Origin: Antedon mediterranea
Taxonomy: Eukaryota > Animalia > Echinodermata
Length of the DNA: 64,000 nucleotides
Assembly: GCF_964355755.1 (NCBI RefSeq)
Contig: NC_092676.1
Span: 5,743,888-5,807,887 of the forward strand
Direction: 5' to 3'
Shown: positions 1 to 38,900 of the stretch, piece after piece
Position numbering within the stretch: position 1 is the stretch's first letter
Layout: every line of letters starts with the position of its first letter
Program-made: the position numbers and the translations under genes
The notes under the pieces: generated by a model
Database searches by the model: none
What the model was told of the DNA's origin: nothing
What the model saw: only the letters and a program-made list of their open reading frames with translations

Positions 1-3000
1 AAAAATTATTGATAATCTTTAAAAAATGAATAATTTATTAATAATGGTTAAATAATGTTACTGCATAATATTCAGTATTATAAATTATTTTATTATTTAT
101 TTAAAAACAAATTAAACGAAGGAATTAATATGAGTCAAAATACTTACAGATGTGTCAGTGCTGTCAATCTATCAAATACATTGGCTGGCAATGTGCTTAT
201 TTGGTTACCGTACAAATACCTTCAAAGTAAACATATATACTTATACATTTTGAATTATTTTAATAGTCTTTCAGTCAATGATAGTGACATTATCTACATA
301 GTAAATGCTGATGAGTATTCTTTATTTAGGCAAAAAGTAACTGTTAAAATGATAATGTGTTATTCTCATTATCACAAATTCTATAGAAAATTCAAAATAT
401 TTATTATCATCTTAATGTATTGATCATTTTTATGTATTTAATTAAATCTCTTTAAATAATAATCAATGAACAATTATTGATAATCTTTAAAAAATGAATA
501 ATTTATTAATAAATACTGGTTAAATAATGTTACTGCATAATATTCAGTATTATAAATTATTTTATTATTTATTTAAAAACAAATTACACGAAGGAATTAA
601 TATGAGTCAAAATACTTACAGCTGTGTCAGTGCTGTCAATCTATCAAATACATTGGCTGGCAATGTGCTTATTTGGTTACTGTTCAACCTCCTTCAAAGT
701 AAAAACAATGTACAGTAACAATTACAATATTCAAGCTGTTTGATATGTCAACTTTTATTTTCGGTATACATTTTTTTTTAATTATTTGTATAGTCTTTCA
801 GTCAATGATAGGGACATTATCTACATAGTAAATGCTGATGAGTATTCTTTAATTAGGCAAAAATTAACTGTTAAAATAATAATGTGTTATTTATTATCAC
901 AAATTCTATAGTAAATTCTAAATATTTATTATCATCTTTATGTATTTATCATTTTTATGTATTTAATTAAATCTCTATAATGACCAATGAACAATTATCG
1001 ATAATCTTTTAAAAATGAAAAATGTATGAATAATGGCCTCTTCAAGTCAGCTGTATACTGCTCTAGTACTCTTATAGATACCATTGTAAAACAAATTTGA
1101 ATTAATAAATAAATTTATTTTTTATAGCAAATTCTAATTATTATTTGTTTTATTATTATCCTAATGTTTTATTATCATTTATCATTTATTATCTACATAA
1201 TAAATACTGATGGCCTGGGTATACTTTAATTAGGCTAAAATATATGTTTTATTTTGTTATTCTCATGAACATAATTTTTATAGGAAATCATACAAATTTG
1301 TTATCATCTTTATGTATTTAATAATATAATTATTTAATTTACCTAAATAATGACCAATAAACAATTATTAATATCTTTAAACAATGAATAATGTAATGAA
1401 AATTGTTAATACTGTATGTGATTTTTTTTTAAATACTGTGTTTGTTGATCAAATTATGAATGATAAACTGCATTATATTCATTGTTATGAATTATTTCAT
1501 TTGTTTTCTTTTTAAGTAAATTAAAACAAATAAATTAATTTTAGAAAAATACTTACAGTTTTGTCAGTGCTGTCAATCTATCAAATACATTGGCTGGCAA
1601 TGTACTTATTTGGTTACTGTTCAACCTCCTTCAAAGTAAAAACAATGTACAGTAACAATTACAATATTCAAGGTGTTTGAAATGTCAACTTTTATTTTCA
1701 ATATACATTTTTGAATTATTTCTATAGTCTTTCAGTCAATGATAGGGACATTATCTACATAGTAAATGCTGATGAGTATTCTTTAATTAGGCAAAAATTA
1801 ACTGTTAAAATGATAATGTGTTATTCTCATTATCACAAATTCTATAGAAAATTCTAAATATTTATTATCATCTTAATGTATTTATCATTTTTATGTATTT
1901 AATTAAATCTCTTTAAATAATGATCAATGAACAATTATTGATAATCTTTAAAAAATGAATAATTTATTAATACTGGTTAAATAATGTTACTGCATAATAT
2001 TTAGTATTATAAATTATTTTATTATTTATTTAAAAACAAATTAAACGAAGGAATTAATATGAGTCAAAATACTTACAGCTGTGTCAGTGCTGTCAATCTA
2101 TCAAATACATTGGCTGGCAATGTGCTTATTTGGTTACTGTTCAACCTCCTTCAAAGTAAAAACAATGTACAGTAACAATTACAATATTCAAGCTGTTTGA
2201 TATGTCAGCTTTTATTTTCGGTATACATTTTTTTAAAATTATTTTGTATAGTCTTTCAGTCAATGATAGGGACATTATCTACATAGTAAATGCTGATGAG
2301 TATTCTTTAATTAGGCAAAAATTAACTGTTAAAATAATAATGTGTTATTTATTATCACAAATTCTATAGTAAATTCTAAATATTTATTATCATCTTTATG
2401 TATTTATCATTTTTATGTATTTAATTAAATCTCTATAATGACCAATGAACAATTATCGATAATCTTTTAAAAATGAAAAATGTATGAATAATGGCCTCTT
2501 CAAGTCAGCTGTATACTGCTCTAGTACTCTTATAGATACCATTGTAAAACAAATTTGAATTAATAAATAAATTTATTTTTTATAGCAAATTCTAATTATT
2601 ATTTGTTTTATTATTATCCTAATGTTTTATTATCATTTATCATTTATTATCTACATAATAAATACTGATGGCCTGGGTATACTTTAATTAGGCTAAAATA
2701 TATGTTTTATTTTGTTATTCTCATGAACATAATTTTTATAGGAAATCATACAAATTTGTTATCATCTTTATGTATTTAATAATATAATTATTTAATTTAC
2801 CTAAATAATGACCAATAAACAATTATTAATATCTTTAAACAATGAATAATGTAATGAAAATTGTTAATACTGTATGTGATTTTTTTTTAAATACTGTGTT
2901 TGTTGATCAAATTATGAATGATAAACTGCATTATATTCATTGTTATGAATTATTTCATTTGTTTTCTTTTTAAGTAAATTAAAACAAATAAATTAATTTT

Positions 3001-6000
3001 AGAAAAATACTTACAGTTTTGTCAGTGCTGTCAATCTATCAAATACATTGACTGGCAATGTACTTATTTGGTTTCTGCCCAAATCCCTTCAAAGTAAAAA
3101 CAATGTACAGTAACAATTACAATATTCAAGTTGTTTGATATGTCAACTTTTATTTTCGGTATACATTTTTTTTTAATTATTTGTATAGTCTTTCAGTCAA
3201 TGATAGGGACATTATCTACATAGTAAATGCTGATGAGTATTCTTTAATTAGGCAAAAATTAACTGTTAAAATAATAATGTGTTATTTATTATCACAAATT
3301 CTATAGTAAATTCTAAATATTTATTATCATCTTTATGTATTTATCATTTTTATGTATTTAATTAAATCTCTATAATGACCAATGAACAATTATCGATAAT
3401 CTTTTAAAAATGAAAAATGTATGAATAATGGCCTCTTCAAGTCAGCTGTATACTGCTCTAGTACTCTTATAGATACCATTGTAAAACAAATTTGAATTAA
3501 TAAATAAATTTATTTTTTATAGCAAATTCTAATTATTATTTGTTTTATTATTATCCTAATGTTTTATTATCATTTATCATTTATTATCTACATAATAAAT
3601 ACTGATGGCCTGGGTATACTTTAATTAGGCTAAAATATATGTTTTATTTTGTTATTCTCATGAACATAATTTTTATAGGAAATCATACAAATTTGTTATC
3701 ATCTTTATGTATTTAATAATATAATTATTTAATTTACCTAAATAATGACCAATAAACAATTATTAATATCTTTAAACAATGAATAATGTAATGAAAATTG
3801 TTAATACTGTATGTGATTTTTTTTTAAATACTGTGTTTGTTGATCAAATTATGAATGATAAACTGCATTATATTCATTGTTATGAATTATTTCATTTGTT
3901 TTCTTTTTAAGTAAATTAAAACAAATAAATTAATTTTAGAAAAATACTTACAGTTTTGTCAGTGCTGTCAATCTATCAAATACATTGGCTGGCAATGTAC
4001 TTATTTGGTTACTGTGCAAATACCTTCAAAGTAAAAACAATGTACAGTAACAATTACAATATTCAAGGTGTTTGAAATGTCAACTTTTATTTTCAATATA
4101 CATTTTTGAATTATTTCTATAGTCTTTCAGTCAATGATAGGGACATTATCTACATAGTAAATGCTGATGAGTATTCTTTAATTAGGCAAAAATTAACTGT
4201 TAAAATGATAATGTGTTATTCTCATTATCACAAATTCTATAGAAAATTCTAAATATTTATTATCATCTTAATGTATTTATCATTTTTATGTATTTAATTA
4301 AATCTCTTTAAATAATGATCAATGAACAATTATTGATAATCTTTAAAAAATGAATAATTTATTAATACTGGTTAAATAATGTTACTGCATAATATTTAGT
4401 ATTATAAATTATTTTATTATTTATTTAAAAACAAATTAAACGAAGGAATTAATATGAGTCAAAATACTTACAGCTGTGTCAGTGCTGTCAATCTATCAAA
4501 TACATTGGCTGGCAATGTGCTTATTTGGTTATAGTCCAACCACCTTCAAAGTAAAAACAATGTACAGTAACAATTACAATATTCAAGTTGTTTGATATGT
4601 CAACTTTTATTTTTCTTATACATTTTGAATTATTTTTTATAGTCTTTCAGTCAATGATAGGGACATTATCTACATAGTAAATGCTGATGAGTATTCTTTA
4701 ATTAGGCAAAAATTAACTGTTAAAATAATAATGTGTTATTTATTATCACAAATTCTATAGTAAATTCTAAATATTTATTATCATCTTAATGTATTTATCA
4801 TTTTTATGTATTTAATTAAATCTCTATAATGACCAATGAACAATTATCGATAATCTTTTAAAACTGAAAAATGTATGAATAATGGCCTCTTCAAGTCAGC
4901 TGTATACTGCTCTAGTACTCTTATAGATACCATTGTAAAACAAATTTGAATTAATAAATAAATTTATTTTTTATAGAAAATTCTAATTATTATTTGTTTT
5001 ATTATTATCCTAATGTTTTATTATCATTTATCATTTATTATCTACATAATAAATACTGATGGCCTGGGTATACTTTATTTAGGCTAAAATATATGTTTAT
5101 ATTTTGTTATTCTCATGAACATAATTTTTATAGGAAATCATACAAATTTGTTATCATCTTTATGTATTTAATAATATAATTATTTAATTTACCTAAATAA
5201 TGACCAATAAACAATTATTAATATCTTTAAACAATTAATAATGTAATGAAAATTGTTAATACTGTATGTGATTTTTTTTTAAATACTGTGTTTGTTGATC
5301 AAATTATGAATGATAAACTGCATAATATTCATTATTATGAATTATTTCATTTGTTTTCTTTTTAAGTAAATTAAAACAAATAAATTAATTTTAGAAAAAT
5401 ACTTACAGTGTTGTCAGTGCTGTCAATCTATCAAATACATTGGCTGGCAATGTACGTATTTTGTTAATGTACAAATACCTTCAAAGTAAAAGAAAGATAC
5501 AGTAACAATTACAATATTCAAGCTGTTTGAAATGTCAACTTTTATTTTCAATATACATTTTTGAATTATTTGTATAGTCTTTCAGTCAATGGTAGGGACA
5601 TTATCTACATAGTAAATGCTGATGAGTATTCTTTAATTAGGCAAAAATTAACTGTTAAAATAATAATGTGTTATTCTCATTATCACAAATTCTATAGCAA
5701 ATTCTATTTATTATCATCTTTATGTATTAATCATTTTTATGTATTTAATTAAATCTCTATAATGACCAATGAACAATTATCGATAATCTTTTAAAAATGA
5801 AAAATGTATGAATAATGGCCTCTTCAAGTCAGCTGTATACTGCTCTAGTACTCTTATTGATACCCTTGTAAAACAAATTTGAATTAATAAATAAATTTAT
5901 TTTTTATAGCAAATTCTAATTATTATTTGTTTTATTATTATCCTAATGTTTTATTATCATTTATCATTTATTATCTACATAATAAATACTGATGGCCTGG

Positions 6001-6830
6001 GTATACTTTAATTAGGCTAAAATATATGTTTTATTTTGTTATTCTCATGAACATAATTTTTATAGGAAATCATACAAATTTGTTATCATCTTTATGTATT
6101 TAATAATATAATTATTTAATTTACCTAAATAATGACCAATAAACAATTATTAATATCTTTAAACAATGAATAATGTAATGAAAATTGTTAATACTGTATG
6201 TGATTTTTTTTTAAATACTGTGTTTGTTGATCAAATTATAAATGATAAACTGCATTATATTCATTGTTATGAATTATTTCATTTGTTTTCTTTTTAAGTA
6301 AATTAAAACAAATAAATTAATTTTAGAAAAATACTTACAGGCGTGTCAATGCTGTCAATTTATTAAATACATTGGCTGGCAATGTACTTATTTGGTTCCC
6401 GCTCAAACTCCTTCAAAGTAAAAACAATGTACAGTAACAATTACAATATTCAAGTTGTTTGATATGTCAACTTTTATTTTCGGTATACATTTTTTTTGAA
6501 TTATTTCTATAGTCTTTCAGTCAATGATAGGGACATTATCTACATAGTAAATGCTGATGAGTATTCTTTAATTAGGCAAAAAGTAACTGTTAAAAAAGGA
6601 ATAATTTATTAATAATGGTTAAATAATGTTACTGCATAATATTCAGTATTATAAATTATTTTCTTATTTATTTAAAAACAAATTAAACGAAGGAATTAAT
6701 ATGAGTCAAAATACTTACAGTACTGTCAGTGCTGTCAATCTATCAAATACATTGGCTGGCAATGTACGTATTTGGTTCCAGCCCAAATCCCTTCAATGTA
6801 AAAGAAAGGTACATTAACAATTACAATATT
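1..6830 (-). repeat. Tandem intron+LRR-exon array of paralog A (units ~520 and ~937 bp)
   Basis: Near-identical units, each containing plus-strand atacttac-ag...gtcagtgctgtcaatctatcaaatacattggctggcaatgt...-cttcaaagt (donor, exon, acceptor on the minus strand). Variable motifs in transcript order: DLGW, SLSG, YLYI, WLDY, YLHS, DLGR, RLNS, RLNS, RLNS, YLYG. Confidence 0.93.
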
Positions 6831-7881
6831 TGATATTCTATTCATACAGGTATAGGCCTACAGTGATTGTGCTTGGGGTATATAAAGTGACCCCACAAAA
6901 TGAAATTATTTCTGATAACTCTAAGTACTAAATTTCAAATTGTCATTAGGTCATTATTACATATTTTAAAATATATATTATATATATTTTTAAATTCCAC
7001 GTTTTATAATAAACTTACAATGAAATGTTTGCACTGACTGACTTACAATTCTGTTACTGGAATATGATCATTATACTCGTTGATGGTTGCGATGTTATTA
7101 ATACTCCATGGAGGACGACATTCCACTCTGTGACCGTAAGTAGACCTCTTAGGCGCACCACATTCACAGTCGGCTGGACATTCTGCATTTGTTAAAAACA
7201 AGACAACTCGGAGATACGTCAAGAAAGGAAAAGTGAAAACTATCTTTTTCAATATATATGTAATGTTACAAATGCAATCAAATCAAATAAAATGTCTAGC
7301 TGTGACCGCTCAATTAAATATAATTCGAATCAGATAAAAAAATTAATTCATAATCATGTAAAAATAAATACTGTATAGTACAGTATATAAACAAAAGTTG
7401 AACATTAACATTTAAATCAGATTGTCTTCGAAGTTTAATAACAGTACTGTTGTTATAAACCAACAAAACAGTATAGTTTGTATGAGGCATACTGTTCAAA
7501 GACAGGGCTACATCTATTATTAAATACAGTATCAAATACCAAACAGCTAATTAATTATTATATTAAACAATTAATAAATTAAAAAAATGAAGCAATCATA
7601 CCGGGAAGGGTATTAGGATTCCAGGCGATAGTAGTAGGATCATAGTCAAAGTTGATGACGTGATTGGTAACGTTAACGTAAGTGGAGCTTCCCCTGTCAC
7701 TGTCAACACCACTGGAAAGGGTGCCACTGCCACTGCTACCACCACTGCCACTGTCACTGCCACTACCACTACCACTATCACTTTCACTGCCACCATCGCT
7801 GTCACTAAAACAGCGATAACAAGGTAATACAACCAATACAACAATACAATACAGTAGTATGTTTCCTTTTAAGATAAACAT
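148..7881 (-). CDS. LRR-GPCR paralog A, 5' part (signal peptide, LRRNT, >=10 VLR-like LRR exons); 3' end lies left of the window
   Basis: Exons, all GT-AG: 7602-7881, 7047-7182, then 72-nt exons 6719-6790, 6339-6410, 5407-5478, 4472-4543, 3952-4023, 3015-3086, 2077-2148, 1557-1628, 620-691, 148-219. Phases 1, 2, 2... join into one open frame. Same layout as complete paralog C. Confidence 0.88.
7047..7182 (-). CDS. Paralog A exon 2: cysteine-rich LRR N-terminal cap (LRRNT)
   Basis: Acceptor TGCAG|, ECPADCECGAPKRSTYGHRVEC...IPVTEL, donor TT|GTAAGT. 136 nt, phase 1->2. CPxxCxC...VxC is the LRRNT pattern. Confidence 0.88.
7602..7881 (-). CDS. Paralog A exon 1: signal peptide plus Ser/Gly/Asp-rich linker
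   Basis: MFILKGNILLYCIVVLVVLPCYRC-FSDSDGGSESDSGSGSGSDSGSGGSSGSG...AWNPNTLP. Donor G|GTATGA at 7601, phase 1. Homologous to 47488-47689 and 28168-28382. Confidence 0.85.
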
Positions 7882-12434: not shown

Positions 12435-13449
12435 TCACAATGTATTAAGTGGAATCTGTACAACTGCCGGTTGACGCACTTTGCACTTAAACATATATAC
12501 AATTGTGTAAAGATAAGGATTCACTGAGGAGTTGATGGGGATGATGAATGTCGCCGCCCAAACATATATGTCATCAGGAATCGTCATCCAACTCATCTCA
12601 GAACCAATTGCCATTACTATAATCGGACCCCAGCAACAGAAATCTGTGAAAACTATTAAGCCCAGTTTTCTCGCCATTTTCAACTGTTCTTTCCTCATCT
12701 GTCGTCTATTGACAGTGGCCCCCGATCTCTTAACCGATAAGAAGATCACGAGGTAGCTCACTGTTATTACAATGAACCCGATTCCGTTAAATACAACAAA
12801 CATGGCGACTGCATACTCCCAGCCTTGCCAATGACTTTTTGTCAGAGGTAGTGCGAGGCACACACTCTCTTTGCCATAGTAATTATCTCCAAAATATGAA
12901 ATATCTGTTATTGGAAGAAAACTCAGCACAATCCAAAATAGCCATGCCAAGCCGATAATGCTTCTACATTTTGTACGATTGAGGCGTTTTGTACTAAATG
13001 GATTAACAATGTTAATAGCTCGATCCACACTCAGCAGCATCAGTGTAAACACTGAGCATTGCCCAGAGATTGTAGAAATTGCCCCGGCAAAGCTGCAAAG
13101 AAAACTGCTCTTCCAATCCCTTGCAGCTTTAGCATACCGTCCACGATAGTGTATGTCCGCACTCGCAATGATGATCAAGTAGACTGCCATTAGCAAGTCG
13201 GACACGGCAAGATTAGTAATGAGTGTGGTCTGGACCTTATTTACATTGTTACCTAAATCATTATCCTTTTTGAACTTTCGTGATATGATGACAATCAAAT
13301 TGCCAATGACTGATGACACCCCAATGATCATCATCAATACACGGAGAACATCGCTTTTTAGCAAGTCTTCACAAGAAGCAAATGCATCAACGGGTTCGCA
13401 GACATCAATGTCACCAACAAGGCAACACAGACGAGAGAAATCGGAGTAC
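12435..13449 (-). CDS. Paralog B terminal exon: LGR type-C hinge plus rhodopsin-class 7TM domain
   Basis: Acceptor CTTAG| at 13450. YSDFSRLCC...CEPVDAFASCEDLL hinge, NLAVSDLLM (TM2), SVDRA (DRY-like), CLALP (ECL2), FTDFCCWGPI (TM6), PINSSVNPYLY (NPxxY). Intact to TGA. Confidence 0.93.
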
Positions 13450-14031: not shown

Positions 14032-14103
14032 AATTCTTTTAAATTGTTCAGTTCTTCAAAAGTTCTATCTCTGTAATTCTGTAAGTTGTTCTTTTGTAAC
14101 CAT
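14032..14103 (-). CDS. Paralog B last (divergent, non-array) LRR exon
   Basis: 72 nt, AG|...|GTAAG, WLQKNNLQNYRDRTFEELNNLKEL. Nearly identical to 36357-36428 in C. Confidence 0.85.
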
Positions 14104-15544
14104 CTATAGGATAACATATTAGAAATAAATTAAGAATAGGCTAATACATTTTGAAAAAAGTAAAGTTTTCAAACTATGGTTTATGTATGCTTTTCTTGAA
14201 GAAAATACATGAACTATGTATATTTTAACTGTTATGAATCCTCTTTATCTTTATCTTTGAATTTGGTCTGTATATTTTTGTATTGTTTTTAAGAGGGCCT
14301 CTTCAAGTCAGCTGTACTGCTGTAGTACTGTTAGAGCTACCCTTGTAAAACAAATTTGAATGAATAAATAAATATATTCATATTTTATTTATCTGTACAT
14401 AACACTATTCTAAATTCAAGACCCCTGGTGAAAACCAAATACACTTTATTTGTTTACTTGTTTGGAAGTTTTCCATTCAAATTCAGTGGTTGAATACATC
14501 CTTTGTGTTCGAAGTTCTTATTATTATTGTATGTTTATATAAATAAATTAAATTATTTTATTATTTATTTAAAAACAAATTCAACGAAAGAATCAATATG
14601 AGTCAAAATACTTACAGGTGTGTCAGTGCTGTCAATCTATCAAATACATTGACTGGCAATGTACTTATTTGGTTGCTGTTTAAACTCCTTCAAAATAAAA
14701 GAAAGGTACAGTAACAACTACAATATTCAAGTTGTTTGAAATGTCAACTTTTATTTTCAAAATACATTTTGAATGATTGTAATAGTCTTTCAGTCAATGA
14801 TAGGGACATAATCTACATAGTAAGTGCTGATAAGTATTCTCTAATTAGGCAAAAATTAACTGTTAAAATAATAATGTGTTATTCTCATTATCACGAATTC
14901 TATAGAAAATTCTAAATATTTATCATCTTAATGTATTTATCATTTTTATGTATTTAATTAAATCTCTTTAAATAATGATCAATGAACAATTATTGATAAT
15001 CTTTAAAAAATGAATAGTTTATTAATAATGGTTAAATAATGTTACTGCATAATATTCAGTATTATAAATTATTTTATTATTTATTTAACAATAAATTAAA
15101 CGAAGGAATTTATAAGAGTAAAATACTTACAGTAATGTCAGTGCTGTCAATCTATCAAATACATTGACTGGCAATGTACTTATTTGGTTACTGCCCAAAA
15201 ACCTTCAAAATAAAAGAAAGGTACAGTAACAATTACAATATTTAAGCTGTTTGAAATGTCAACTTTTATTTTCGATATACATTTTTTAATTATTTCTATA
15301 GTCTTTTAGTCAATGAGGGTCATTATCTACATAGTAAATGCTGATGAGTATTCTTTAATTAGGCAAAAATTAACTGTTAAAATAATAATGTGTTATTCTC
15401 ATTATCACAAATTCTATAGAAAATTCTTAATATTAATTATCATCTTAATGTATTTATCATTTTTATGTATTTAATTAAATCTATTTAAATAATGATCAAT
15501 GAAGAATTATTGATAATCTTTAAAAAATTAATAATTTATTAACA

Positions 15545-17272
15545 AAAATTTTTCCTGGACAAATCAGACGATTGATTAATAAACTAAAGTCAAAGAAGTC
15601 TAGTCACCCTGATGACTTGCCAATTAAACTTATAAAAGAATTCGCCTTTGAAATTGCTACCCCACTTGCCCATATTTTTAATTGTTGTCTTAATGAAGGT
15701 GTATTTCCCGAGTTATGGAAGTTAGCAACAGCCATTCCTGTTCCAAAAGTTCCTAATGTGACATCATTTCAAGACCCCAGGCCAATTTCACTTACCCCCA
15801 TCTTTGCCAAGTTGTTTGAGTCATTCCTTACTGATTGGGTGACTAGTGACATTCATCAACATTTAGATATTAAACAATTTGGTTGCCGTAAAGGCTCATC
15901 TACTAGCCATTATCTTGTGGACATGATTCAGTCTGTAATTAGTGATATTGAAAAAGGTGATTCTTTTGTGGATATTTGTGCCGTTGATTTTACGAAGGCC
16001 TTCGACCGAATTGACCATACGGTCATTGTTAGAAAGCTTGTCGACATCGGAGTGAGAACATCTATTATTCCCACCATCTGTAGCTTTCTGACGGATCGTA
16101 AAATAAATACTAAACTTAGTTCATCCTTTTCCCCTTATGCCAACATCACATGTGGGATTCCACAGGCTACAAAGCTTGGGCCAATTTTGTTTCTTATATT
16201 AGTCAATGATATCTCTATGGAAGGCTGCAGATGGTGGAAGTATGTTGATGATCTCACTCTTGGTGACACTGTTAAACATGGTAATGCCCCTAAACTTCAA
16301 TCTTGTCTTGATGACCTTACTGAGTGGTGTGATACAAATCACATGGTCCCTAAACCCTCTAAGTGTCATATCATGAGAGTTAATTTTTTGAAAAGAAATA
16401 TTCCCCCTCCTAATTATTACCTTAGCGGTACAACACTTAATGTGGTTTCGTATATAAAGCTCCTTGGACTTATAATCCAGGATGACTTGAAATGGGATAA
16501 TAATGTCAGTGACATGGTAAAAAGAGCATCCAAAAGGTTGTATACGTTATATATCCTTAGAAGGGCCAATGTACCAGTTCATGATATGATATCCGTTTAT
16601 GTTTGTTATATTCGCCCAATCTTAGAATACGCCTGCCCTGTTTGGCATGGAAGCATCAATAAGGCCCAAATGTCGACCATTGAAAGAGTGCAAAAGAGAG
16701 TTTTACGTATTATTCTGGGTCCCGCTTTCCTTACGTATGATTCAGCTCTTGAGCTTACTGATATGACCACTCTCGCATCCAGACGAGAGACGTTGATTCA
16801 AAAATTTGGAGAAAGGCTCTTGAAATCGGAATTGTACAGAACTATTTTGCCCGACTACCGCATTATTAATAGAGAGCTTAGATCAACCACGGTAGATAAA
16901 CCCCTAATTAATATACCTGTTTGCAGAACTAACCGTCTTAAGACTTCGCCTGCCCTTACCATAAGTAGAATCCTTAATTCAAACAGTACCTGATCACGCT
17001 GAAGATGGCTATGTTATAAATATTTACATATATTGGCCTATGCATTTGTATATAAATTTTGTAATCTTTTTAACATAACATAATTTTATTTTTTTAACTG
17101 ATTTTTTCAAATTTTTTAATATTTTGTATAAATTTTTGTATTTTTTTAAATGTTTCTGTTTCCATATATTTATATATATATTTTTGTAAATCAACAATTT
17201 CAGCCTTCGGGCTGCATGTTTTTTATTGTATAAACCTGAATAAATAAAATAAATAAATAAATAAATAAATAA
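15545..17272 (+). mobile_element. 5'-truncated non-LTR retrotransposon (LINE, CR1/L2-like group) in an intron of paralog B
   Basis: RT ORF 15572-16993, T-rich 3' UTR and (TAAA)n tail at ~17238-17272. The host intron consensus is interrupted at ~15542 and resumes at ~17380. Confidence 0.9.
15572..16993 (+). CDS. Reverse transcriptase (LINE ORF2 C-terminal part)
   Basis: 473 aa with RPISLT, QFG, DFTKAFD, GIPQATKLGP, YVDD, KLLG and RPILEYACPVW motifs. No endonuclease domain (truncated). Confidence 0.93.
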   Translation: MINKLKSKKSSHPDDLPIKLIKEFAFEIATPLAHIFNCCLNEGVFPELWKLATAIPVPKVPNVTSFQDPRPISLTPIFAKLFESFLTDWVTSDIHQHLDIKQFGCRKGSSTSHYLVDMIQSVISDIEKGDSFVDICAVDFTKAFDRIDHTVIVRKLVDIGVRTSIIPTICSFLTDRKINTKLSSSFSPYANITCGIPQATKLGPILFLILVNDISMEGCRWWKYVDDLTLGDTVKHGNAPKLQSCLDDLTEWCDTNHMVPKPSKCHIMRVNFLKRNIPPPNYYLSGTTLNVVSYIKLLGLIIQDDLKWDNNVSDMVKRASKRLYTLYILRRANVPVHDMISVYVCYIRPILEYACPVWHGSINKAQMSTIERVQKRVLRIILGPAFLTYDSALELTDMTTLASRRETLIQKFGERLLKSELYRTILPDYRIINRELRSTTVDKPLINIPVCRTNRLKTSPALTISRILNSNST

Positions 17273-17382
17273 AGGCCAACAGCCATAAGTTGCGTAATAA
17301 AATGCATAGTGATACCGGACCGACAGACCGACAGACCGACCGACCGACATAGGGAACTATAGAGTCGCGTCCACGCGACTAA
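17272..17382 (+). mobile_element. Short Helitron/HINE-like element with (GACC/GACA)n core and terminal hairpin
   Basis: aaggccaacagcc...gaccgacagaccgacagaccgaccgaccgac...tagagtcgcgtccacgcgactaa (stem agtcgcgt/acgcgact). Confidence 0.55.
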
Positions 17383-20300
17383 TAATGGTTAAATAATGTT
17401 ACTGCATAATATTCAGTATTATAAATTATTTTATTATTTATTTTAAAACAAATTAAACGAAGGAATTAATATGAGTCAAGATACTTACAGCTCTGTCAAT
17501 GCTGTCAATCTATCAAATACATTGGCTGGCAATGTACTTATTTGGTTACCCACCAAATCCCTTCAGAGTAAAAACAATGTACAGTAACAATTACAATATT
17601 TAAGCTGTTTGATATGTCAACTTTTATTTTCGAAATACATTTGGAATGATTGTAATAGTCTTTCAGTCAATGATAGGGACATTATATACACAGTAAATGC
17701 TGATGAGTATTCTTGAATTAGGCAAAAATTAACTGTTAAAATAATAATGTGTTATTCTCATTATCACAAATTCTATAGAAAATTCAAAATATTTATTATC
17801 ATCTTAATGTATTTATCATTTTTATGTATTTAATTAAATCTCTTTAAATAATGACCAATGAAAAATTATTGATAATCTTTAAAAAATAAATAATTTATTA
17901 ATAATGGTTAAATGTTACCGCATAATATTCAGTATTATAAATTATTTTACTATTTATTTAAAAACAAATTCAACGAAGGAATCAATATGAGTCAAAATAC
18001 TTACAGGTGTGTCAGTGCTGTCAATCTATCAAATACATTGGCTGGCAATGTACTTATTTGGTTCCAGTTCAAAGTCCTTCAAAATAAAAGAAAGGTACAG
18101 TAACAACTACAATATTCAAGTTGTTTGAAATGTCAACTTTTATTTTCGAAATACATTTTGAATAATTGTAATAGTCTTTCAGTCAATGATAGGGACATTA
18201 TCTACAGTAAATGCTGATAAGTATTCTTTAATTAGGCAAAAATTAACTGTTAAAATAATAATGTGTTATTCTCATTATCACAAATTCTATAGAAAATTCA
18301 AAATATTTATTATCATCCTAATGTATTTATCATTTTTATGTATTTAATTAAATCTCTTTAAATAATGACCAATGAAAAATTATTGATAATCTTTAAAAAA
18401 TAAATAATTTATTAATAATGGTTAAATGTTACCGCATAATATTCAGTATCATAAATTATTTTATTATTTATTTAAAAACAAATTCAACGAAGGAATCAAT
18501 ATGAGTCAAAATACTTACAGGTGTGTCAGTGCTGTCAATCTATCAAATACATTGGCTGGCAATGTACTTATTTGGTTACTGTACAAATACCTTCAAAATA
18601 AAAGAAAGGTACAGTAACAATTACAATATTCAAGCTGTTTGATATGTCAACTTTTATTTTCGAAATACATTTGGAATGATTGTAATAGTCTTTCAGTCAA
18701 TGATAGGGACATTATCTACATAGTAAATGTTGATAAGTATTCTTTAATTAGGCAAAAATTAACTCTTAAAATAATAATGTGTTATTCTCATTATCATAAA
18801 TTCTATAGAAAATTCTAAATATTTATCATCTTAATGTATTTATCAATTTTATGTATTTAATTAAATCTCTTTAAATAATGATCAATTAACAATTATTGAT
18901 AATCTTTAAAAATGAATAATTTATTAATAATGGTTAAATAATGTTACTACTATTATGAATTGTTTTATTATTTATTTAAAAACAAATTTAACGAAGGAAT
19001 TAATATGAGTCAAAATACTTACAGGTGTGTCAGTGCTGTCAATCTATCAAATACATTGGCTGGCAATGTACTTATTTGGTTACTGTACAAATACCTTCAA
19101 AGTAAAATAAAGGTACAGTAACAATTACAATATTCAAGCTGTTTAGAATCTCAACTTTTATTTTCGATATACATTTTTGAATTATTTTGTATAGTCTTTC
19201 AGTCAGTGATAGAGACATTATCTACATAGTAAATGCTGATGAGTATTCTTTAATTAGGCAAAAATTAACTCTTAAAATAATAATGTGGTATTCTCATTAT
19301 CACAAATTCTATAGCAAACTCTAAATATTTATTATCATCTTAATGTATTTATCATTTTTATGCATTTAATTAAATCTCTTTAATTAATGATCAATGAACA
19401 ATTATTGATAATCTTTAAAAAATGAATAATTTATTAATAAGGGATAAATAATGTTACTACTGTTATGAATTGTTTTATTATTTATTTAAAAACAAATTAA
19501 ACGAAGGAATCAATATGAGTCAAAATACTCACAGGTGTGTCAGTGCTGTCAATCTATCAAATACATTGGCTGGCAATGTACTTATTTTGTTACTGTACAA
19601 ATCCCTTCAAAGTAAAAACAATGTACAGTAACAATTACAATATTCAAGTTGTTTGATATGTCAACTTTTGTTTTCATATACATTTTTGAATTATTTTAAT
19701 AATCTTTCAGTCAATGATAGGGACATTATCTACATAGTAAATGCTGATGAGTACTTTTAATTAGGCAAAAATTAACTGTTACAATAATAATGTGTTATTT
19801 ATTATCACATTCTATAGTAAATTCTAAATATTTATTATCATCTTAATGTATTTATCATTTTTATGTATTTAATTAAATCTCTTTAAATAATGATCAATTA
19901 ACAATTATTGATAATCTTTAAAAAATGAATAATTTAATAAGTATGATTAAATAATGTTACAGCTTAATATTCAGTATTATGAATTATTTGATTATGTATT
20001 TAAAAACAAATTACACGAAGGAATTAATATGAGCAAAATACTTACAGTTCTGTCAGTGCTGTCAATCTATCAAATACATTGGCTGGCAATGTACTTATTT
20101 GGTTACGCCCCAAATCCCTTCAAAGTAAAAATAATGTACAGTAACAGTTACAATATTCAAGCTGTTTGATATGTCAACTTTATTTTTCATATACATTTTG
20201 AACTATTTTAATAGTCTTTCAGTCAATGGTAGGGACATTATCTACATAGTAAATGCTGATGAGTACTTTTAATTAGGCAAAAATTAACTGTTACAATAAT

Positions 20301-21719
20301 AATGTGTTATTTATTATCATTCTATAGTAAATTCTAAATATTTATTATCATCTTAATGTATTTATCATTTTTATGTATTTAATTAAATCTCTTTAAATAA
20401 TGATCAATTAACAATTATTGATAATCTTTAAAAATGAATAATTTATTAATAATGGTTAAATAATGTTACTACTATTATGAATTGTTTTATTATTTATTTA
20501 AAAACAAATACAACGAAGGAATTAATATGAGTCAAAATACTTACAGCCATGTCAGTCCTGTCAATCTATCAAATACATTGGCTGGCAATGTACTTATTTG
20601 GTTACGCCCCAAATCCCTTCAAAGTAAAACAATGTACAGTAAAAATTACAATATTAAAGCTGTTTGTCAACTATTATTTTCATATACATTATGTTATCGT
20701 CTTTCAGTCAATGATAGGGACAAAAATCTTCATAGTAAATACTGATGAGTATACTTTAATTAGGCTAAAATAAAGTGTAAAAATAAGAAAGTTTTATTCT
20801 CATATAAATACAATTTTTATAGGAAATTCTAAATATTTGTTATCATCTTTAATGTATTTAATAAAATAATAATTAGATCTCGTTAAATAATGGCAGATCG
20901 AGTAATTATTTTTATTATCTTTAAAAAGGAATAATTTATTTATAATGGTTAGATATGTTAGGCCTATATTATTACTCATTCTGATTGAGAGGGTTACACT
21001 ACTATAAGAAAACGAATTGTGCATGTCGTAGGGCCCCTCGGAAGAGCAGTTTTTATATTATTTCTACCCTACTGAAAGAAAACGAAATAAATAATTAATA
21101 AATATGTGGTGCACTCTCTCCGAACTAGTATTTCTTCCCTTTCCGATTAATAGTATATTGTACAAAATAAGACAGCTCAAAATGACGATAGTCGGTTTCA
21201 TTGCAATGAGTATCGACGTGTTCACGTTTATATTTATTTTTCGTTTTACAAACATTGAGATAACAATTATCTTCATCTACATCTTCTACTCCTCCCCACT
21301 GACTGTATCTGGAATAACACGTATTTTATAAACAATTGTCTAGGCATTGACCGCGAACCAGATAAATAAGTGTGAAATTTCTAGAAAACTAGATGTATTT
21401 CAATTTTGTTTTACCATTAAAAATGATCGGCATTATCCAGCAAGCTATTTCACGAAAACTTATTCAAAATTGTACATATAGAAACTGCTATCATCCATAA
21501 TTAAATAGTGATCAAATACAATGGTTTTTATCTTTATGGAAAGTGTTTATGTGCTCATCATTTTTTCTCAAACATTCTGTTTCTGCCTCTGTTCCATTTT
21601 ATTTCATTATAGCCTCACAACTGGGACTGCGATAAGATATTGTTAACAATATAGGAACTTGACCTTACCTCAGTCACAGAAAGAAAATCGTATTACCCAT
21701 AAAACACTGAACCGGAAAC

Positions 21720-22127
21720 AAAACTAAGATATCTCTATTAATAGAGATATCTCTATTAATAGAGATATCTTAGTTTTAAATAGATATCTCTATTAATAGA
21801 GATATCTCTGTTAATAGAGATATCTCTATTAATAGAGATATCTTAGTTTTAAATAGATATCTCTATTAATAGAGATATCTCTGTTAATAGAGATATCTCT
21901 ATTAAAAACTAAGATATCTTAATTTTAATAGAGATATCTTAGTTTTAAAAGAGATATCTCTATTAATAAAGATATAGAGATATCTCTGTTAATAGAGATA
22001 TCTCTATTAAAAACTAATATATCTTAGTTTTAAATAGAGATATCTTAGTTTTTAATAGAGATATCTTAGTTTTTAATAGAGATATCTCTATTGATAGAGA
22101 TATCTTAGTTTTAAACTAAGATATCTT
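21720..22127. repeat. Palindromic AT-rich satellite (AGAGATATCTCT / TATTAATA units)
   Basis: About 20 copies of self-complementary agatatct cores spaced by tattaata or tagttttaa. Confidence 0.88.
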
Positions 22128-23082
22128 TATTTCCGAATAAATGACAGCTTGGCGCGCCATAAAAATGATCAAATAACAACTTTCGTAGCGTACTTATATA
22201 TCGGTCGTAGTAGACACCATTTATAATTGTAAATAGAGCAAGCAACAGAAATAATCGATAATATAAACAGTGAAGGTGTTTCCCTGGTAGGCATACCAGG
22301 CCTCCTATAGTAACATTGAATCGCACCTAAATTTGATTAAATGATTAATAAATAGCATAAATAATTAGTTCAATTAGCCTCCTATAGTAAAATTGAATCG
22401 CACCTAAATAGCATAAATAATTAGTTAAATTGATAAAACAAATTGTATTTCACGTAAAGTAAAGGCCTTTATAATTGATTAGTTGAATATCTAAAACAAA
22501 TAAATTGTAGTTCACGATCGATTCAGTTGAATCGCTAAATTTACATTGTAGTTCACGTAAAAGTAAAGGCCTTCAATAATAGTTAAATTACTAAATAAAT
22601 TGTAGTTCACGTAAAGTAAATTTCTTAAATCAATATAACTGATTAGTTAAATATCTAAAACAAATTAATTGATTAATTAATTAATTAATATTTTGTATTT
22701 AATATTGAATGTCGCCACCAACGGCCATGTTGCCGGAAGTGACGGACCCGGAATCCCGTTGAACAGCGCGAGTGTGTGAAAACAAAATAACCCTGTGATA
22801 TCCACAAATTTCGATAGGTTACGCAAAATTTTGTCGTTGTAAAAGATAAAAATGGAACAATAGCGTAGTACTGAAAACAATTTTATCAAATCTACGTTTC
22901 GCGGTACATCTAAGATAGATAATGTAGGTATCCAAGGCGGAGATTTGTACGTCAGAATTAACCATAATTTATAGGCCTATATAGATAAAATGAATATTAG
23001 CAAAACAATGTAGGCCTACAGTACAAATTGCAATATTCATTTTGATATGTCAACTTTTTATTTTAAATTTTCTTTTTTTTTT

Positions 23083-23146
23083 GACGACGACGACGACAAC
23101 AATAATAATGATGATGATGATGATGATGATGATGACGATGACGATG
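23083..23146. repeat. Compound trinucleotide microsatellite (GAC/AAT/GAT)
   Basis: gacgacgacgacgacaacaataataatgatgatgat... Confidence 0.9.
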
Positions 23147-24060
23147 AATATCCTTTTAAATAATGCCCAAGGATCAATTATTATTATTTTTAATTAAAAA
23201 AAAAGAATAATTGTTGAATATTTTACAAATGATTTAAAAAATATATTGATGATGTATTGATCACATAATGAAATGATACAATGCATACAATTCATATAAA
23301 TTATCTATTTAAAAAATAAATTAAACAAAAAATTAAATATTGCACCCCTTAAACAATTTAAAAAAAAAAACATGTTGTTGTTGAATATGCCATTTTAATG
23401 TCAATAATAATAAAAAATTCTTTTTTTATTTATCCTCATTTTTTATGGTTTTTGGAGCACAATACATATTTAATAATTAATATGAGCAAAATACTTTCAG
23501 TTTTCTCAATTTATTGATAATGTTATTTTACTAATGCTTTTAAAATCTTTACTGTTTGTATAAATGTTTACATTATAAGATGATTAAATGTATATCATAC
23601 ATTATTATAACTTAATATATTACCGTATTTCTTTTTAAATCAAATTAAACAAAGAAATTAATATGAGCAAAATACTTACAGCCATGTCAATGCTGTCAAT
23701 CTATCAAATACATTGGCTGGCAATGTACTTATTATGTTATTCCTCAAATACCTTTAAAGAAAACACAATGTACATTAACAATTACAATATTCAAGCTGTT
23801 TGATATGTCAGCTTTTATTTTCGGTATACATTTTTAATTATTTTTATAGTTTTTCAGTCAATGATATTTTCTACAGAGTACATGCTGATGTGTATATTTT
23901 AAGTAGGCAAAATAAAGTGTGTTAAAAATATAAAGTATTAATAAAAAAAAATAATAATAATAATAATTAATATAATCATTATTATATATTTTAAAATACA
24001 TATTATATATATTTTTTATTCCATTTTAAATAATAAATGAAATGTTTGCACGGAAAATAA

Positions 24061-25722: not shown

Positions 25723-26135
25723 CTGTACACTTTGAATCGACTAGGACGGTGATAGTTTCAACAAAGTATTACATCGCAATGTTTTACTGTGTTTAGTGGT
25801 ATATTATTTGTAAAACATGAAAACAATTAATATTTCCTTACTAAATGGATAAAGAATATATTTAAAAATTGTTCCTCCTTGCACCCATCCTCTTCCCCAT
25901 CCCTCAACCCTAATGCCACATACAAAACACAACTTATTAAGTTTGTTTAAATTTGACTTAAACAATTTTAAACAGTTTCTCTTGCGGAAGGAATTCCCAG
26001 GGTGCTAATTTTAGTTGAGTACATAAATCAAAGTGTCTATTTATTCGTTCCTGCGGTACGTACATTTGAAATCGCCAATTTTTTAACGCTGAAATTATTA
26101 TGTATTCAAGAACCATCTGTGGGCACGACCTAGAA

Positions 26136-26167
26136 GGTACGCGAGCGAAGCGAGCGTACCATCTAGT
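26136..26167 (+). mobile_element. Helitron-like 3' terminus
   Basis: GC-rich hairpin ggtacgc-gagcgaagcga-gcgtacc followed by CTAG|T. 5' end not located. Confidence 0.45.
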
Positions 26168-26302
26168 AAATTAAATTAACAATCACAGTAGAGTTAACAT
26201 AAAAATAAATACTGTATAGTACAGAATAAAAGCAAAAGTTAAAAATTAAAATTATGAATTTAATCAGATTGCCTTCGAAGTTTAATAATAGTGTAGTCCT
26301 AC

Positions 26303-27972: not shown

Positions 27973-28674
27973 TACTGTTTTTTTAAAAACTAACAAAACA
28001 TTTTGTATAATATAGAGCCTATTTTCAAAGAAAGGGCTAAATATATTATTAGACACAGTATCAAATACCAAACAGCTAATTATGAAAATAACACACTTTC
28101 TGATACTGATAGCATAATTATTATACCTATCAACATAACGTAAATTTAAAGAATGAAGCAATCATACCGGGAAGGGTATCACTATTCCATGCGATAGTAA
28201 TATTATCATAGTCAGACTCGATGACTTGATAAATTGTAAAGTTAACATCAGTTGAGTTGATAAATTCAATACTACTATAATCACTTTCACTGCCACCATC
28301 GCTGCCACTGTCACAGCGATAACAAGGTAATACAACCAATATAACAATACAATAGTAATATGATTCCTTTTAAGATGAACATCTTCTTAACTCAATTCAC
28401 TCGTAATCAATTTAATAAACTTTACTTCTGCGAGTCCACTCAGCATATGAACAATATACTTTGTTTCATATCTTCATTTACCTGTATTTATTAAACTTTT
28501 TTAAATATTAAACATTTAGATACAGTCACCGGATGCATTAATAAAATTCTGAGTTGTTAATATTTTATAATATTTTATCCATATTATATGAGCACAAGAT
28601 TTTTAAAACACATGGACCCGTGTTACTCATAATTGTTGAAAAGTGCTAAGTTTAAAAATAGAGATAAGTATAAG

Positions 28675-34906: not shown

Positions 34907-35921
34907 TTACAATGTATTAAGTGGAATCTGTACAACTGCCGGTTGACGCACTTTGCACTTAAACATATATACAATTGTGTAAAGATAAGGATTGACTGAG
35001 GAGTTGATGGGGATGATGAATGTCGCCGCCCAAACATATATGTCATCAGGAATTGTCATCCAACCCATCTCAGAACCAATTGCCATTACTATAATCGGAC
35101 CCCAGCAACAGAAATCTGTGAAAACTATTAAGCCTAGTTTCCTCGCCATTTTCAACTGTTCTTTCCTCATCTGTCGTCTATTGACAGTGGCCCCCGATCT
35201 CTTAACCGATAAGAAGATTACGAGGTAGCTCACTGTTATTACAATGAACCCGATTCCGTTAAATACAACAAACATGGCGACTGCATACTCCCAGCCTTGC
35301 CAATGACTTTTTGTCAGAGGTAGTGCGAGGCACACACTCTCTTTGCCATAGTAATTATCCCCAAAATATGAAATATCTGTTATTGGAAGAAAACTCAGCA
35401 CAATCCAGAAAAGCCATGCGAAGCCGATAATGATTCGACATTTTGTACGATTGAGGCGTTTCGTACTAAATGGATTAACAATGTTAATAGCTCGATCCAC
35501 ACTCAGCAGCATCAGTGTAAACACTGAGCATTGCCCAGAGAGTGTAGAAATTGCCCCGGCAAAGCTGCAAAGGAAACTGCTCTTCCAATCCCTTGCAACT
35601 TTGGCATACCGTCCACGATAGTGTACATCCACACTCGCAATGATGATTAAGTAGACAGCCATTAGCAAGTCAGACACGGCAAGATTAGTAATGAGTGTGG
35701 TTTGAACCTTATTTACATTGTTACCTGAATCATTATCCTTTTTAAACTTTCGTGATATGATGACAATCAAATTTCCAATGACTGATGACACCCCAATGAT
35801 CATCATCAATACACGGAGAACTTCGCTTTTTAGTAAGTCTTCACAAGAAGCAAATGCATCAACGGGTTCGCAGACATCAATGACACCAACAAGGCAACAG
35901 AGACGAGAAAAATCCGATTTC
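34907..35921 (-). CDS. Paralog C terminal exon: hinge plus 7TM
   Basis: Acceptor CATAG| at 35922. KSDFSRLCC...SCEDLL...NPYLY...NTL*. About 10 aa differences from the paralog B exon. Confidence 0.93.
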
Positions 35922-38900
35922 CTATGAGAGAGTAAAGTAAACTTGGCAAATGAATTTGAATAGTTATTTTTTTCGGAGGCCCAAATTGTTACTCTTCGAT
36001 CCCAAAAATAATGAGTAAAGGTTTAGAATAGTCGAAGATTAATTGTGAAAGTACATTTTTATGATACTTTCGGATAAATAAGAATAATAAAATACTATCT
36101 GTTTATAAGCATAATAACACATCGAATATCATGATTGTAACATAGCCGAATTAACTATTAATTTTAATATATCTATTTAAATTGAACATAATTAAAACAT
36201 TTACCACATTCAAATTATCAAATGTAACTTACTTAACTAAAACACCGACAAATTTAACATTCAATAAAATTATTTACTGTACATATAGCAAAGAGAATAA
36301 ATACTAATAGCTGCATAAGTTTGTATGAGCATCTCTCATACTTTTATCATACTTACAATTCTTTTAAATTGTTCAGTTCTTCAAAAGTTCTATCTCTGTA
36401 ATTCTGTAAGTTGTTCTTTTGTAACAATCTATAGGATAACATATTAGAAATAAATTAAGAATAGGCTAATACATTTTGAAAAAAGTAAAGTTTTCAAACT
36501 ATGGTTTATGTATGCTTTTCTTGAAGAAAATACATGAACTATGTATATTTTAACTGTTATGAATCCTCTTTATCTTTATCTTTGAATGTGGTCTGTATAT
36601 TTTTGTATTGTTTTTAAGATGGCCTCTTCAAGTCAGCTGTACTGCTGTAGTACTGTTAGAGCTACCCTTGTAAAACAAATTTGAATGAATAAATACATAT
36701 ATTAATAATTTATTTATCTGTACATAACACTATTCTAAATTCAAGACCCCTGATGAAAACAAAATACACTTTCTTTGTTTACTTGTTTGCGAAGTTTTCC
36801 ATTCAAATTCAGTGGTTGAATACATCCTTTGTGTTCGAAGTTCTGATTATTATTGTATGTTTTTTTAACGTTTTGTACTGTAATGCCTATAGCACTGATA
36901 CATATAACTATTCAAATACAAAGCTTCCTCACATTTTGACATTGAATCGTACAGCAAAAACTTTATTTTTTATTTGTTTACAGCAATAACTCCTTTACGG
37001 CTTCACAAGTGTGTTATAAAATCATGTTAACTTACAAACGTGAAAGTGATGAAGCAAAAGAAGAAAATGCACCTGGTTCTATGGTAGTTATAGCGTTTTC
37101 CTGTAAATACCTGTTAAGATAACCAATATGTATTATTATATATCTTGTTTTTCACATTACATTAAGTAAAGTACAGATACAAGTATTATTGTATTACACA
37201 TTGCATAATATTCAATACTCTCATATACATTAATTCCTTGTCTCTTCTGGGTATTTTTTTTTAATAAGGGGATAAAAAGTTCACTTTTTTATTGAATCTC
37301 ATCAAATAATTGTTTGTTAATTATTGTTTGTTAATCTTAATATTCTATTGATTTTTTACAACAATTGATAACACAGTGACTGGTTATAATACAACAAATG
37401 TAAATTAGACTGGATCATAATAATAGAAAGTAGTTCTGTTTCTGGGATATACGTCAGTAAATACTGATGGCCTGGGTATACTTTAATCAGGCTTAAATAT
37501 ATGTTTATTTTGTTATTTTTATAGGAAATCATAACAATTTGTTATCATCTTTATGTATTTAATAATATAATTATTTAATTTACCTAAATAATGACCAATA
37601 CACAATTATTAATATCTTTAAACAATGAATAATTTAATGAAAATTGTTAATACTGTATGTGATTTTTTTTTTAAATACTGTGTTTTTTGATCAAATTATG
37701 AATGATAAACTGCATAATATTCATTATTATGAATTATTTCATTTGTTTTCTTTTTAAATAAATTAAAACAAACAAATTAATTTTAGAAAAATACTTACAG
37801 TTCTGTCAGTGCTGCCAATCTATCAAATACATTGGCTGGCAATGTACGTATTTTGTTATTGTACAAATACCTTCAAAGTAAAAGAAAGATACAGTAACAA
37901 TTACAATATTCAAGCTGTTTGAAATGTCAACTTTTATTTTCAATATACATTTTTGAATTATTTGTATAGTCTTTCAGTCAATGGTAGGGACATTATCTAC
38001 ATAGTAAATGCTGATGAGTATTCTTTAATTAGGCAAAAATTAACTGTTAAAATAATAATGTGTTATTTATTATCACAAATTCTATAGTAAATTCTAAATA
38101 TTTATTATCATCTTTATGTATTTATCATTTTTATGTATTTAATTAAATCTCTATAATGACCAATGAACAATTATCGATAATCTTTTAAAAATGAAAAATG
38201 TATGAATAATGGCCTCTTCAAGTCAGCTGTATACTGCTCTAGTACTCTTATAGATACCCTTGTAAACAAATTTGAATTAATAAATAAATTTATTTTTTAT
38301 AGCAAATTCTAATTATTATTTGTTTTATTATTATCCTAATGTTTTATTATCATTTATCATTTATTATCTACATAATAAATACTGATGGCCTGGGTATACT
38401 TTAATTAGGCTAAAATATATGTTTTATTTTGTTATTCTCATGAACATAATTTTTATAGGAAATCATACAAATTTGTTATCATCTTTATGTATTTAATAAT
38501 ATAATTATTTAATTTACCTAAATAATGACCAATAAACAATTATTAATATCTTTAAACAATGAATAATGTAATGAAAATTGTTAATACTGTATGTGATTTT
38601 TTTTTAAATACTGTGTTTGTTGATCAAATTATGAATGATAAACTGCATTATATTCATTGTTATGAATTATTTCATTTGTTTTCTTTTTAAGTAAATTAAA
38701 ACAAATAAATTAATTTTAGAAAAATACTTACAGTTTTGTCAGTGCTGTCAATCTATCAAATACATTGGCTGGCAATGTACTTATTTGGTTTCTGTCCAAA
38801 TGCCTTCAAAGTAAAAACAATGTACAGTAACAATTACAATATTCAAGTTGTTTGATGTGTCAACTTTTATTTTCGGTATACATTTTTTTTTAATTATTTG

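Follow-up and report, generated by a model that had tools for sequence, protein, structure and literature searches.

Single-repeat exons probably exchanged as whole and half cassettes among three tandem LGR-like receptor genes of Antedon mediterranea

We report that a 64,000-nucleotide stretch of the Antedon mediterranea genome (assembly GCF_964355755.1, contig NC_092676.1, positions 5,743,888 to 5,807,887; hereafter the window, with all positions counted from its first nucleotide) carries three neighbouring minus-strand genes, A, B and C, which are tandem genes for leucine-rich repeat (LRR)-containing G-protein-coupled receptors (GPCRs) and are LGR-like. They hold 35 canonical LRR exons (A 10, B 10 and C 15), which we name by their start positions in the window. 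The arrays of these LGR-type genes are most likely a product of germline concerted evolution, in which blocks were duplicated, crossing-over was unequal and gene conversion, in long and short tracts, acted within each paralog and between paralogs, with likely diversifying selection on four codons of each exon. The gene architecture, the limitation of the variation to codons 1, 3, 4 and 23, the exact cassettes, the mosaic tracts and the recombination signals are all seen directly in the window.

The repeat units were located by a 41-nt invariant core string (≤3 mismatches per copy, all 35 on one strand). Each of the 35 exons is 72 nt long, lies on the minus strand in phase 1-1, is open and has intact AG/GT splice sites, with ...ttgaAG preceding the exon and GTAAGT (once GTGAGT) following it. 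The exon product, x-L-x-x-N-Q-I-S-T-L-P-A-N-V-F-D-R-L-T-A-L-T-x plus a split Leu codon, constitutes one 24-residue LRR, and a retained intron would truncate the protein because in-frame stops flank every exon. Free variation is confined to codons 1, 3, 4 and 23, such that nucleotide diversity among the 35 exons is 0.54 at the 12 variable bases compared to 0.03 at the other 60. The 12 typical short-intron units of A and C give values of 0.51 for the variable bases and 0.012 for the exon core, with 0.050 in 300 nt of upstream intron and 0.030 in 300 nt of downstream intron.

Codons 1, 3, 4 and 23 correspond to x5, x7, x8 and x3 in the LxxLxLxxN motif. Side chains at the x positions of this motif project from the concave beta-sheet of LRR proteins, and the four variable codons probably line this concave, ligand-binding face. 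While the first positions of the variable codons are near-random, the third positions of codons 1, 3 and 4 are kept as T, C and T in 29, 29 and 28 of the 35 exons, which is what selection on amino-acid change predicts and blind hypermutation does not. Among the 140 residues at the variable codons are 22 Y, 21 S, 15 G, 13 D, 12 H, 11 R, 10 W and 10 N, and a composition of this kind is typical of protein-binding hot spots. Second positions are almost always A or G, there are zero Cys codons, and the resulting N-R-Y-like set encodes hydrophilic or aromatic residues only. Codons 6 and 8 are semi-variable (NQIS, NKIR, NQIR, NRIS, NIIS and NKIS). The proportion of nonsynonymous differences (pN) in the variable codons, 0.56, is roughly ten times the proportion of synonymous differences (pS) in the scaffold (0.058) and the intron diversity (0.03-0.05). 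It is likely that diversifying selection keeps the four ligand-facing codons different, and selection for new binding specificities would maintain their diversity. Several variable blocks are one base apart (YLYS/DLYS/YLHS/YLYG/YLYN/YLYI), which shows point mutation to be the supplier of new block states that exchange then redistributes.

According to the initial annotation, whole and half cassettes are shuffled within and between the paralogs, and the recombination tests, tree comparisons and tracts described below support such exchange. Three exons listed there as shared are identical over 72/72 nt, namely RLNS..TQ at 620, 2077 and 44250, GLSG..TW at 41233 and 44771, and YLYS..TH at 18519 and 19023. 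The proposed half-exon recombinants likewise have identical codons in the 5' block (codons 1, 3 and 4): RLNS+K (1557) and RLNS+Q, YLHS+K (3952) and YLHS+W (43209), and DLGR+W (20545) and DLGR+E (20046). Repeat numbers assigned to these units (A 9, 7 and 3; C 5 and 15) are correct when counted from the N-terminal end. The block DLGR is also present in A3015, spelled GAT TTG GGC AGA, compared to GAT TTG GGG CGT in B20046 and B20545; the likeness between A and B is one of protein only, due to convergence or chance, and no shared cassette. Ten exon pairs have the whole 5' variable block in common; independent shuffling of the three codon columns predicts 1.48 such pairs and yields at least 10 in 2 of 10,000 shuffles. 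Five of the ten pairs differ at codon 23. All four variable codons are common to 5 pairs, against 0.16 expected (0/10,000 shuffles).

The introns show the same pattern of sharing. That YLYxNKIR exons travel with particular intron variants was borne out: the marker AGAAAGATACAG was found only at 5491 and 37883, adjoining the YLYxNKIR exons 5407 and 37799, and CAATGGTAGGG is present at 5587 and 37979 beside the same two exons, and also at 20224. Lysine at codon 23 goes with a long intron type of ~865 nt (e.g. 692..1556, minus strand), which has 10 copies in genes A and C, and the downstream introns of five K exons (A1557, A3015, A3952, C38732 and C46227) are identical over 250 nt. This long intron consists of two short-intron-like copies in tandem, its first 429 nt being 67% and its last 425 nt 86% like the short intron. 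The LRR exon expected between the two is deleted, and the arrangement looks like a fossil of exon loss that was propagated to 10 copies. The suggestion that the introns act as recombination platforms is plausible. Within the window, 31-mers of the repeat units recur ~8 times.

On a larger scale, self-matches at offsets of 2393 (A) and of 2503 and 3537 (C) have 95-97% identity, A matches C over ≤3.2 kb at 95-97% identity, and B is ~90-91% identical to both. Growth of the arrays by multi-unit block duplication is clear from these matches. Within gene A a twin tract on the minus strand (737..2192 versus 3132-4587) spans 1,456 nt with 8 differing bases, all of them in codons 1, 3 and 4 of exon 1557 versus 3952 and of 2077 versus 4472. 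Thus, 8 differences fall in 18 variable bases and 0 in the other 1,438; with uniform placement the probability is (18/1456)^8 ~ 5e-16. In the first copy the blocks of both exons, 1557 and 2077, are the 12-nt RLNS string of 620 and C44250, which points to templated copying as a much simpler account than eight mutations. In exon 1557, flanking markers at -45 and +24 limit the patch to between 7 and ~68 nt. Moreover, A1557 and C38732 are identical over 584 nt save 5 variable-codon bases, and A3952 and C38732 are identical over 584 nt save 3 bases. Because A and C otherwise differ by ~4% (0.96^584 ~ 4e-11), this indicates recent conversion between A and C. We infer that the exchanges were templated conversions or crossovers rather than mutations.

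Exchange breakpoints had been predicted both in the invariant exon core and in the introns, and both kinds are indicated. Exon 1557 has RLNS as in 620, 2077 and 44250, but its codon-8 AGT, its K and its long intron are as in 3952, which indicates a breakpoint in the core. Exon 3952 equals C43209 over 280 nt, comprising the upstream intron, the 5' block and the core, save codon 23, after which the intron type switches. Breakpoints in introns are supported by the pairwise homoplasy index (PHI) computed on introns alone and by the incongruent trees of the intron halves.

Before the PHI and Mantel tests, units that stand at the end of an array or whose flanks are interrupted were set aside; for the Mantel tests these were 9 of the 35 exons (148, 6339, 6719, 14616, 17489, 20545, 23680, 46227 and 46606). 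With whole units, the PHI value was reached in 0/1000 permutations for 12 short-intron A and C units, for 8 long-intron units and for 19 A, B and C units. With the exons removed it was reached in 0/2000 permutations, with the upstream intron alone in 0/2000 and with the downstream intron alone in 3/2000. Maximum likelihood trees of sub-segments of the same 12 exons, a comparison foreseen in the initial annotation, are incongruent: the upstream-intron data reject the downstream tree (approximately unbiased (AU) test, p = 1.45e-11), and the reverse comparison gave p = 0.002. In a GENECONV-like check, differences are clustered along the unit (p≤0.01 in at least 11 of 66 short-intron pairs and at least 12 of 28 long-intron pairs); the global correction in this check was uninformative. 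In the Mantel tests codon 23 correlates with the downstream intron (r 0.34, 12/5000) and the 5' block weakly with the upstream intron (r 0.15, 205/5000). There is hardly any association between the 5' block and codon 23 (r 0.11, 451/5000) or between the upstream and downstream introns of one exon (r 0.14, 230/5000). The parts of a unit are largely uncoupled.

We propose that the near-identity of introns and exon cores would allow a repeat to pair with a non-corresponding repeat or with one of another gene. Breakpoints in introns would then move whole exons, while a breakpoint in the 55-nt invariant core would join a 5' block (codons 1, 3 and 4) to codon 23 and the downstream intron of another repeat. 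Short patches would replace the 5' block alone, and tract sizes would range from <70 nt to >1.4 kb. The short patches at the variable block may reflect targeting or selective retention, both of which are compatible with the data.

Could simple tandem duplication, point mutation and selection have produced the arrays with no exchange, the shared halves being due to ancestry or convergence? The block duplicates at the three offsets are obvious, many variable blocks differ by a single base, and DLGR arose twice with different codons. We nevertheless regard this as extremely unlikely: PHI is significant even in the introns alone, the intron-half trees are incongruent in both directions of the AU test, and the differences of the 1,456-nt tract are all in variable bases with the same RLNS string in both exons. 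Another concern is that assembly or polishing of a tandem repeat created the identical and mosaic units, which would then be collapsed or chimeric. Units that are 91-97% alike and partly identical over >1 kb are the hardest case for assemblers, and the contigs available for comparison were short, too short to span units. An artefact would, however, hardly keep frame and splice sites in 35/35 exons, nor arrange differences precisely in the codons expected to face the ligand. Contigs of run X5, which derive from a second sample of the same organism and are flagged 'RNA?' (no run is on record as RNA), also match 39582-39959 with 0 differences and 45965-46261 with 1, with proper splice joints. Taken together, this leaves an assembly origin improbable.

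We attach an equally small probability to a programmed, targeted diversification of the variable patches, by templated conversion as in the variable lymphocyte receptors (VLRs) or by directed mutagenesis, possibly somatic. The two detectable changes in the youngest duplicate are short patches on the 5' block (≤ ~68 nt for 1557), with none in ~1.4 kb of intron, and the design of a scaffold with a variable face resembles lamprey VLR cassettes. DNA-run contigs moreover have alternative joints inside the array (e.g. 39381>44458), but these may come from other paralogs or from repeat paths in unitigs. Complete genes with canonical splice sites, as found here, do not have to be assembled; third codon positions are conserved as under amino-acid selection, unlike what blind hypermutation would leave; and the intron mosaics place exchange beyond the variable patches. 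There is likewise only a slim chance that the arrays constitute a cassette library used within the animal, by Dscam-like choice of exon subsets per cell or VLR-like somatic patch conversion. Cells could express different exon subsets, since the LRR exons are all 72 nt and in the same phase with near-identical introns, and within-animal cassette use would, if true, mean that an echinoderm has a repertoire of variable binding surfaces built on GPCRs.

Several points weigh against germline duplication and exchange as the origin of the arrays. The order of the units and the recombinant exons rest on the assembly, the compared contigs being too short to span units. The exchanges are unpolarised, and donors may lie outside the window, in which for example WLDY is single-copy. 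Exons 620 and 2077 sit in a 97%-identical 1.7-kb duplicate, which explains their sharing without recombination, and the identity of A2077 and C44250 could be retained ancestry, as their flanks differ at the ~4% background. PHI is weaker for the 7 units of gene B (23/1000 permutations), and the global p-values of the GENECONV-like check are meaningless because near-identical pairs set the maximum. Within the variable codons the Nei-Gojobori pN/pS is just 1.5, with sites saturated and few synonymous sites; because of this saturation the argument for selection rests on the introns and the scaffold synonymous sites. For gene B no exon of the N-terminal cysteine cap (LRRNT) was detected, and this gene may be in decay, although all ten of its LRR exons are intact.

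The assignment to the LGR type rests on the last exons of genes B and C, which encode a rhodopsin-family seven-transmembrane (7TM) domain (Pfam 7tm_1, E 4.3e-33 for B and 4e-33 for C) with the LRR exons located upstream on the same strand. Best database matches of the 7TM exon are crinoid GRL101-like proteins (Antedon and Anneissia) with 55-61% identity, among 41 matches at E≤0.001, and the closest solved structure is RXFP1 (E 1.2e-46), followed by FSHR, LHCGR and TSHR. Single LRR exons match Pfam LRR_8 at E ~1e-3 with 19 bits; the cut-off is 27 bits, which a single repeat is expected to miss. An Antedon relative, P0004, has LRRs with a similar scaffold (NQIxTLPANxFxDLTAL); a protein search with its LRR region gave generic LRR proteins only (chaoptin, Toll and bacterial) among the 120 listed of 1,227 matches, and is uninformative with respect to family. 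No LDLa module was detected among the open reading frames (ORFs) scanned with Pfam, and exon 1 is without a Pfam family. Gene C has no LDLa module because its exon 1 splices straight onto the LRRNT exon (47068>47488). Being without LDLa, these LGR-like genes therefore fall outside the architecture of GRL101 and the relaxin receptors. A published survey reports one true GRL101 ortholog per ambulacrarian species (PMC8286064).

Like the members of the LGR family (RXFP1/2, GRL101 and the FSH, LH and TSH receptors), the genes have a rhodopsin-type 7TM domain in one last exon after an LRR ectodomain. The classical layout of glycoprotein-hormone receptor genes is one LRR per small exon of the same phase. 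The present genes differ in that they have no LDLa, unlike GRL101 and RXFP, and in that they are tandem paralogs with 10-17 LRRs, in which the scaffold is near-invariant, the introns are homogenised and four codons of each repeat are hypervariable. In the Cf-4/Cf-9, Xa21 and RPP5 type clusters of plant LRR resistance genes and receptor-like proteins, the solvent-exposed residues of xxLxLxx are hypervariable, tandem paralogs exchange sequence and repeat number varies. Variable x residues and sequence exchange, as in these plant clusters, were measured in the present arrays, which differ in that they belong to animal GPCR genes with a separate exon for each repeat and with introns homogenised as well, and in that the variable positions stand out far more sharply from the scaffold. 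In Slit genes individual LRRs reside in 72-bp exons for which in-frame skipping is possible; these repeats are old and diverged, and we know of no homogenised introns or hypervariable codons in them.

The VLRs of lamprey and hagfish are alike in their invariant LRR scaffold, their concave-face diversity and the copying of cassettes by a gene-conversion-like process. The germline copy of a VLR gene is, however, incomplete, and flanking cassettes are added to it by somatic assembly, whereas genes A and C have a leader, an LRRNT exon and LRR exons (in A up to the window edge), and C also the 7TM exon; the exchange recorded here took place between exons that are functional, and it stands fixed in the assembly. 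In sea urchin Toll-like receptors (TLRs), sites under positive selection are concentrated in the beta-strands on the concave side (PMC3367398). These, too, are echinoderm LRR receptors, but they signal through TIR, and the text of that paper contains 0 mentions of gene conversion or recombination (PMC3367398).

A literature search, with supplementary files outside its scope, found no description of such LGR exon-cassette arrays. Diversifying selection on the concave face together with exchange is known from plant resistance genes, and somatic LRR cassettes are known from the VLRs. New here are the receptor class, an LGR-type GPCR without LDLa; the strict arrangement of one LRR per exon with co-homogenised introns; variable codons near saturation within tracts otherwise identical over up to 1.4 kb; and half-exon recombinants that are directly visible. 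LGRs are known as conserved hormone receptors, and their hormones bind the concave LRR face. By analogy, the paralogs would bind different ligands. Paratope-like residue usage combined with fast turnover suggests a varied set of ligands, external or quickly evolving, such as chemical cues, microbes or peptides of conspecifics, and not one conserved hormone. Pieces of exons swapped among repeats and genes probably vary receptor binding. A lineage-specific LGR branch would here behave like an immune or chemosensory recognition family, with a fixed scaffold, four nearly free ligand-facing residues per repeat and exchanged cassettes. The sizes of conversion tracts, from <70 nt to >1.4 kb, and breakpoints in the 55-nt core are also recorded at this locus with unusual clarity. 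Should the genome contain many members of this family, a GPCR-coupled class would join the recognition receptors that are expanded in echinoderms.

The window is AT-rich, with a GC content of 0.21 inside the repeat arrays and 0.25-0.36 elsewhere, and all features of the three genes given here lie on the minus strand. Gene A is cut by the left window edge, its 7TM exon being outside the window. Its LRR array (148..6790) has ten 72-nt exons starting at 148, 620, 1557, 2077, 3015, 3952, 4472, 5407, 6339 and 6719, and it contains the stretch marked in the initial annotation (620-5478). The LRRNT exon of A (7047..7182), with bounds set by offset from C, encodes a protein identical to that of gene C (tblastn, 45/45 aa), and the coding part of exon 1 (7602..7881) encodes a Met, a hydrophobic leader and a Ser/Gly/Asp-rich stretch with no Pfam family.

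The fullest model is that of gene C. Its exon 1 coding part (47488..47689; Met, hydrophobic leader and an acidic/Ser stretch) is followed by the LRRNT exon (CPADCEC..., 46933..47068) and by an LRR array (37799..46677) of fifteen 72-nt exons, which start at 37799, 38732, 39255, 40192, 40712, 41233, 41752, 42689, 43209, 43727, 44250, 44771, 45291, 46227 and 46606. Two divergent LRR exons come next, one of 75 nt (37036..37110; YLQENAITTIEPGAFSSFASSLSR) and one of 72 nt (36357..36428; LLQKNNLQNYRDRTFEELNNLKE), and the last exon (34907..35921) comprises the hinge, the 7TM domain and the tail, stop included. X5 contigs join 47488 to 47068 (exon 1 to LRRNT) and 36357 to 35921 (last LRR to 7TM), both with GT..AG, and also connect exons 40712 and 40192; with these three joints, gene C is therefore spliced as modelled. 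The link from the last LRR exon to the 7TM exon is seen in X5 for gene C only, and the X5 contigs contain zero splice joints for gene B. The Ser/Gly/Asp-rich stretch is longer in exon 1 of gene A than in that of gene C. Contigs of DNA runs have joints on exon 1 of C that omit 107-108 nt (47502>47610/47611), which suggests low-complexity length variants among alleles or paralogs.

For gene B the LRR array (14616..23751) comprises ten 72-nt exons with starts at 14616, 15131, 17489, 18005, 18519, 19023, 19533, 20046, 20545 and 23680, and includes two enlarged introns of 2,286 and 3,063 nt. A last, divergent 72-nt LRR exon (14032..14103) is followed by the final exon (12435..13449) with the hinge, 7TM domain and tail, again including the stop. 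Some 4.4 kb upstream of the first LRR exon an exon-1-like ORF (28133..28369) encodes a leader and an acidic/Ser stretch; no LRRNT exon was found between this ORF and the first LRR exon by tblastn and a cysteine-motif scan. The region 23752-28150 contains high-depth repeats, e.g. at 22726-23527 and 23929-24300. On the plus strand, the 2,286-nt intron carries a retroelement reverse-transcriptase ORF of 489 aa (15524..16993; RVT_1, E 2.6e-17), which is a repeated element since run contigs cover it at raised depth. None of 55 flank ORFs scanned with Pfam had a match above the cut-off. Finally, segment 9072-13521 is 93.6-95% identical to 32044-35999, so that the B/C duplicate takes in several kb downstream of the 7TM exon, and as the identity reaches past this exon paralogs B and C therefore arose via a segment duplication of ~22-23 kb.

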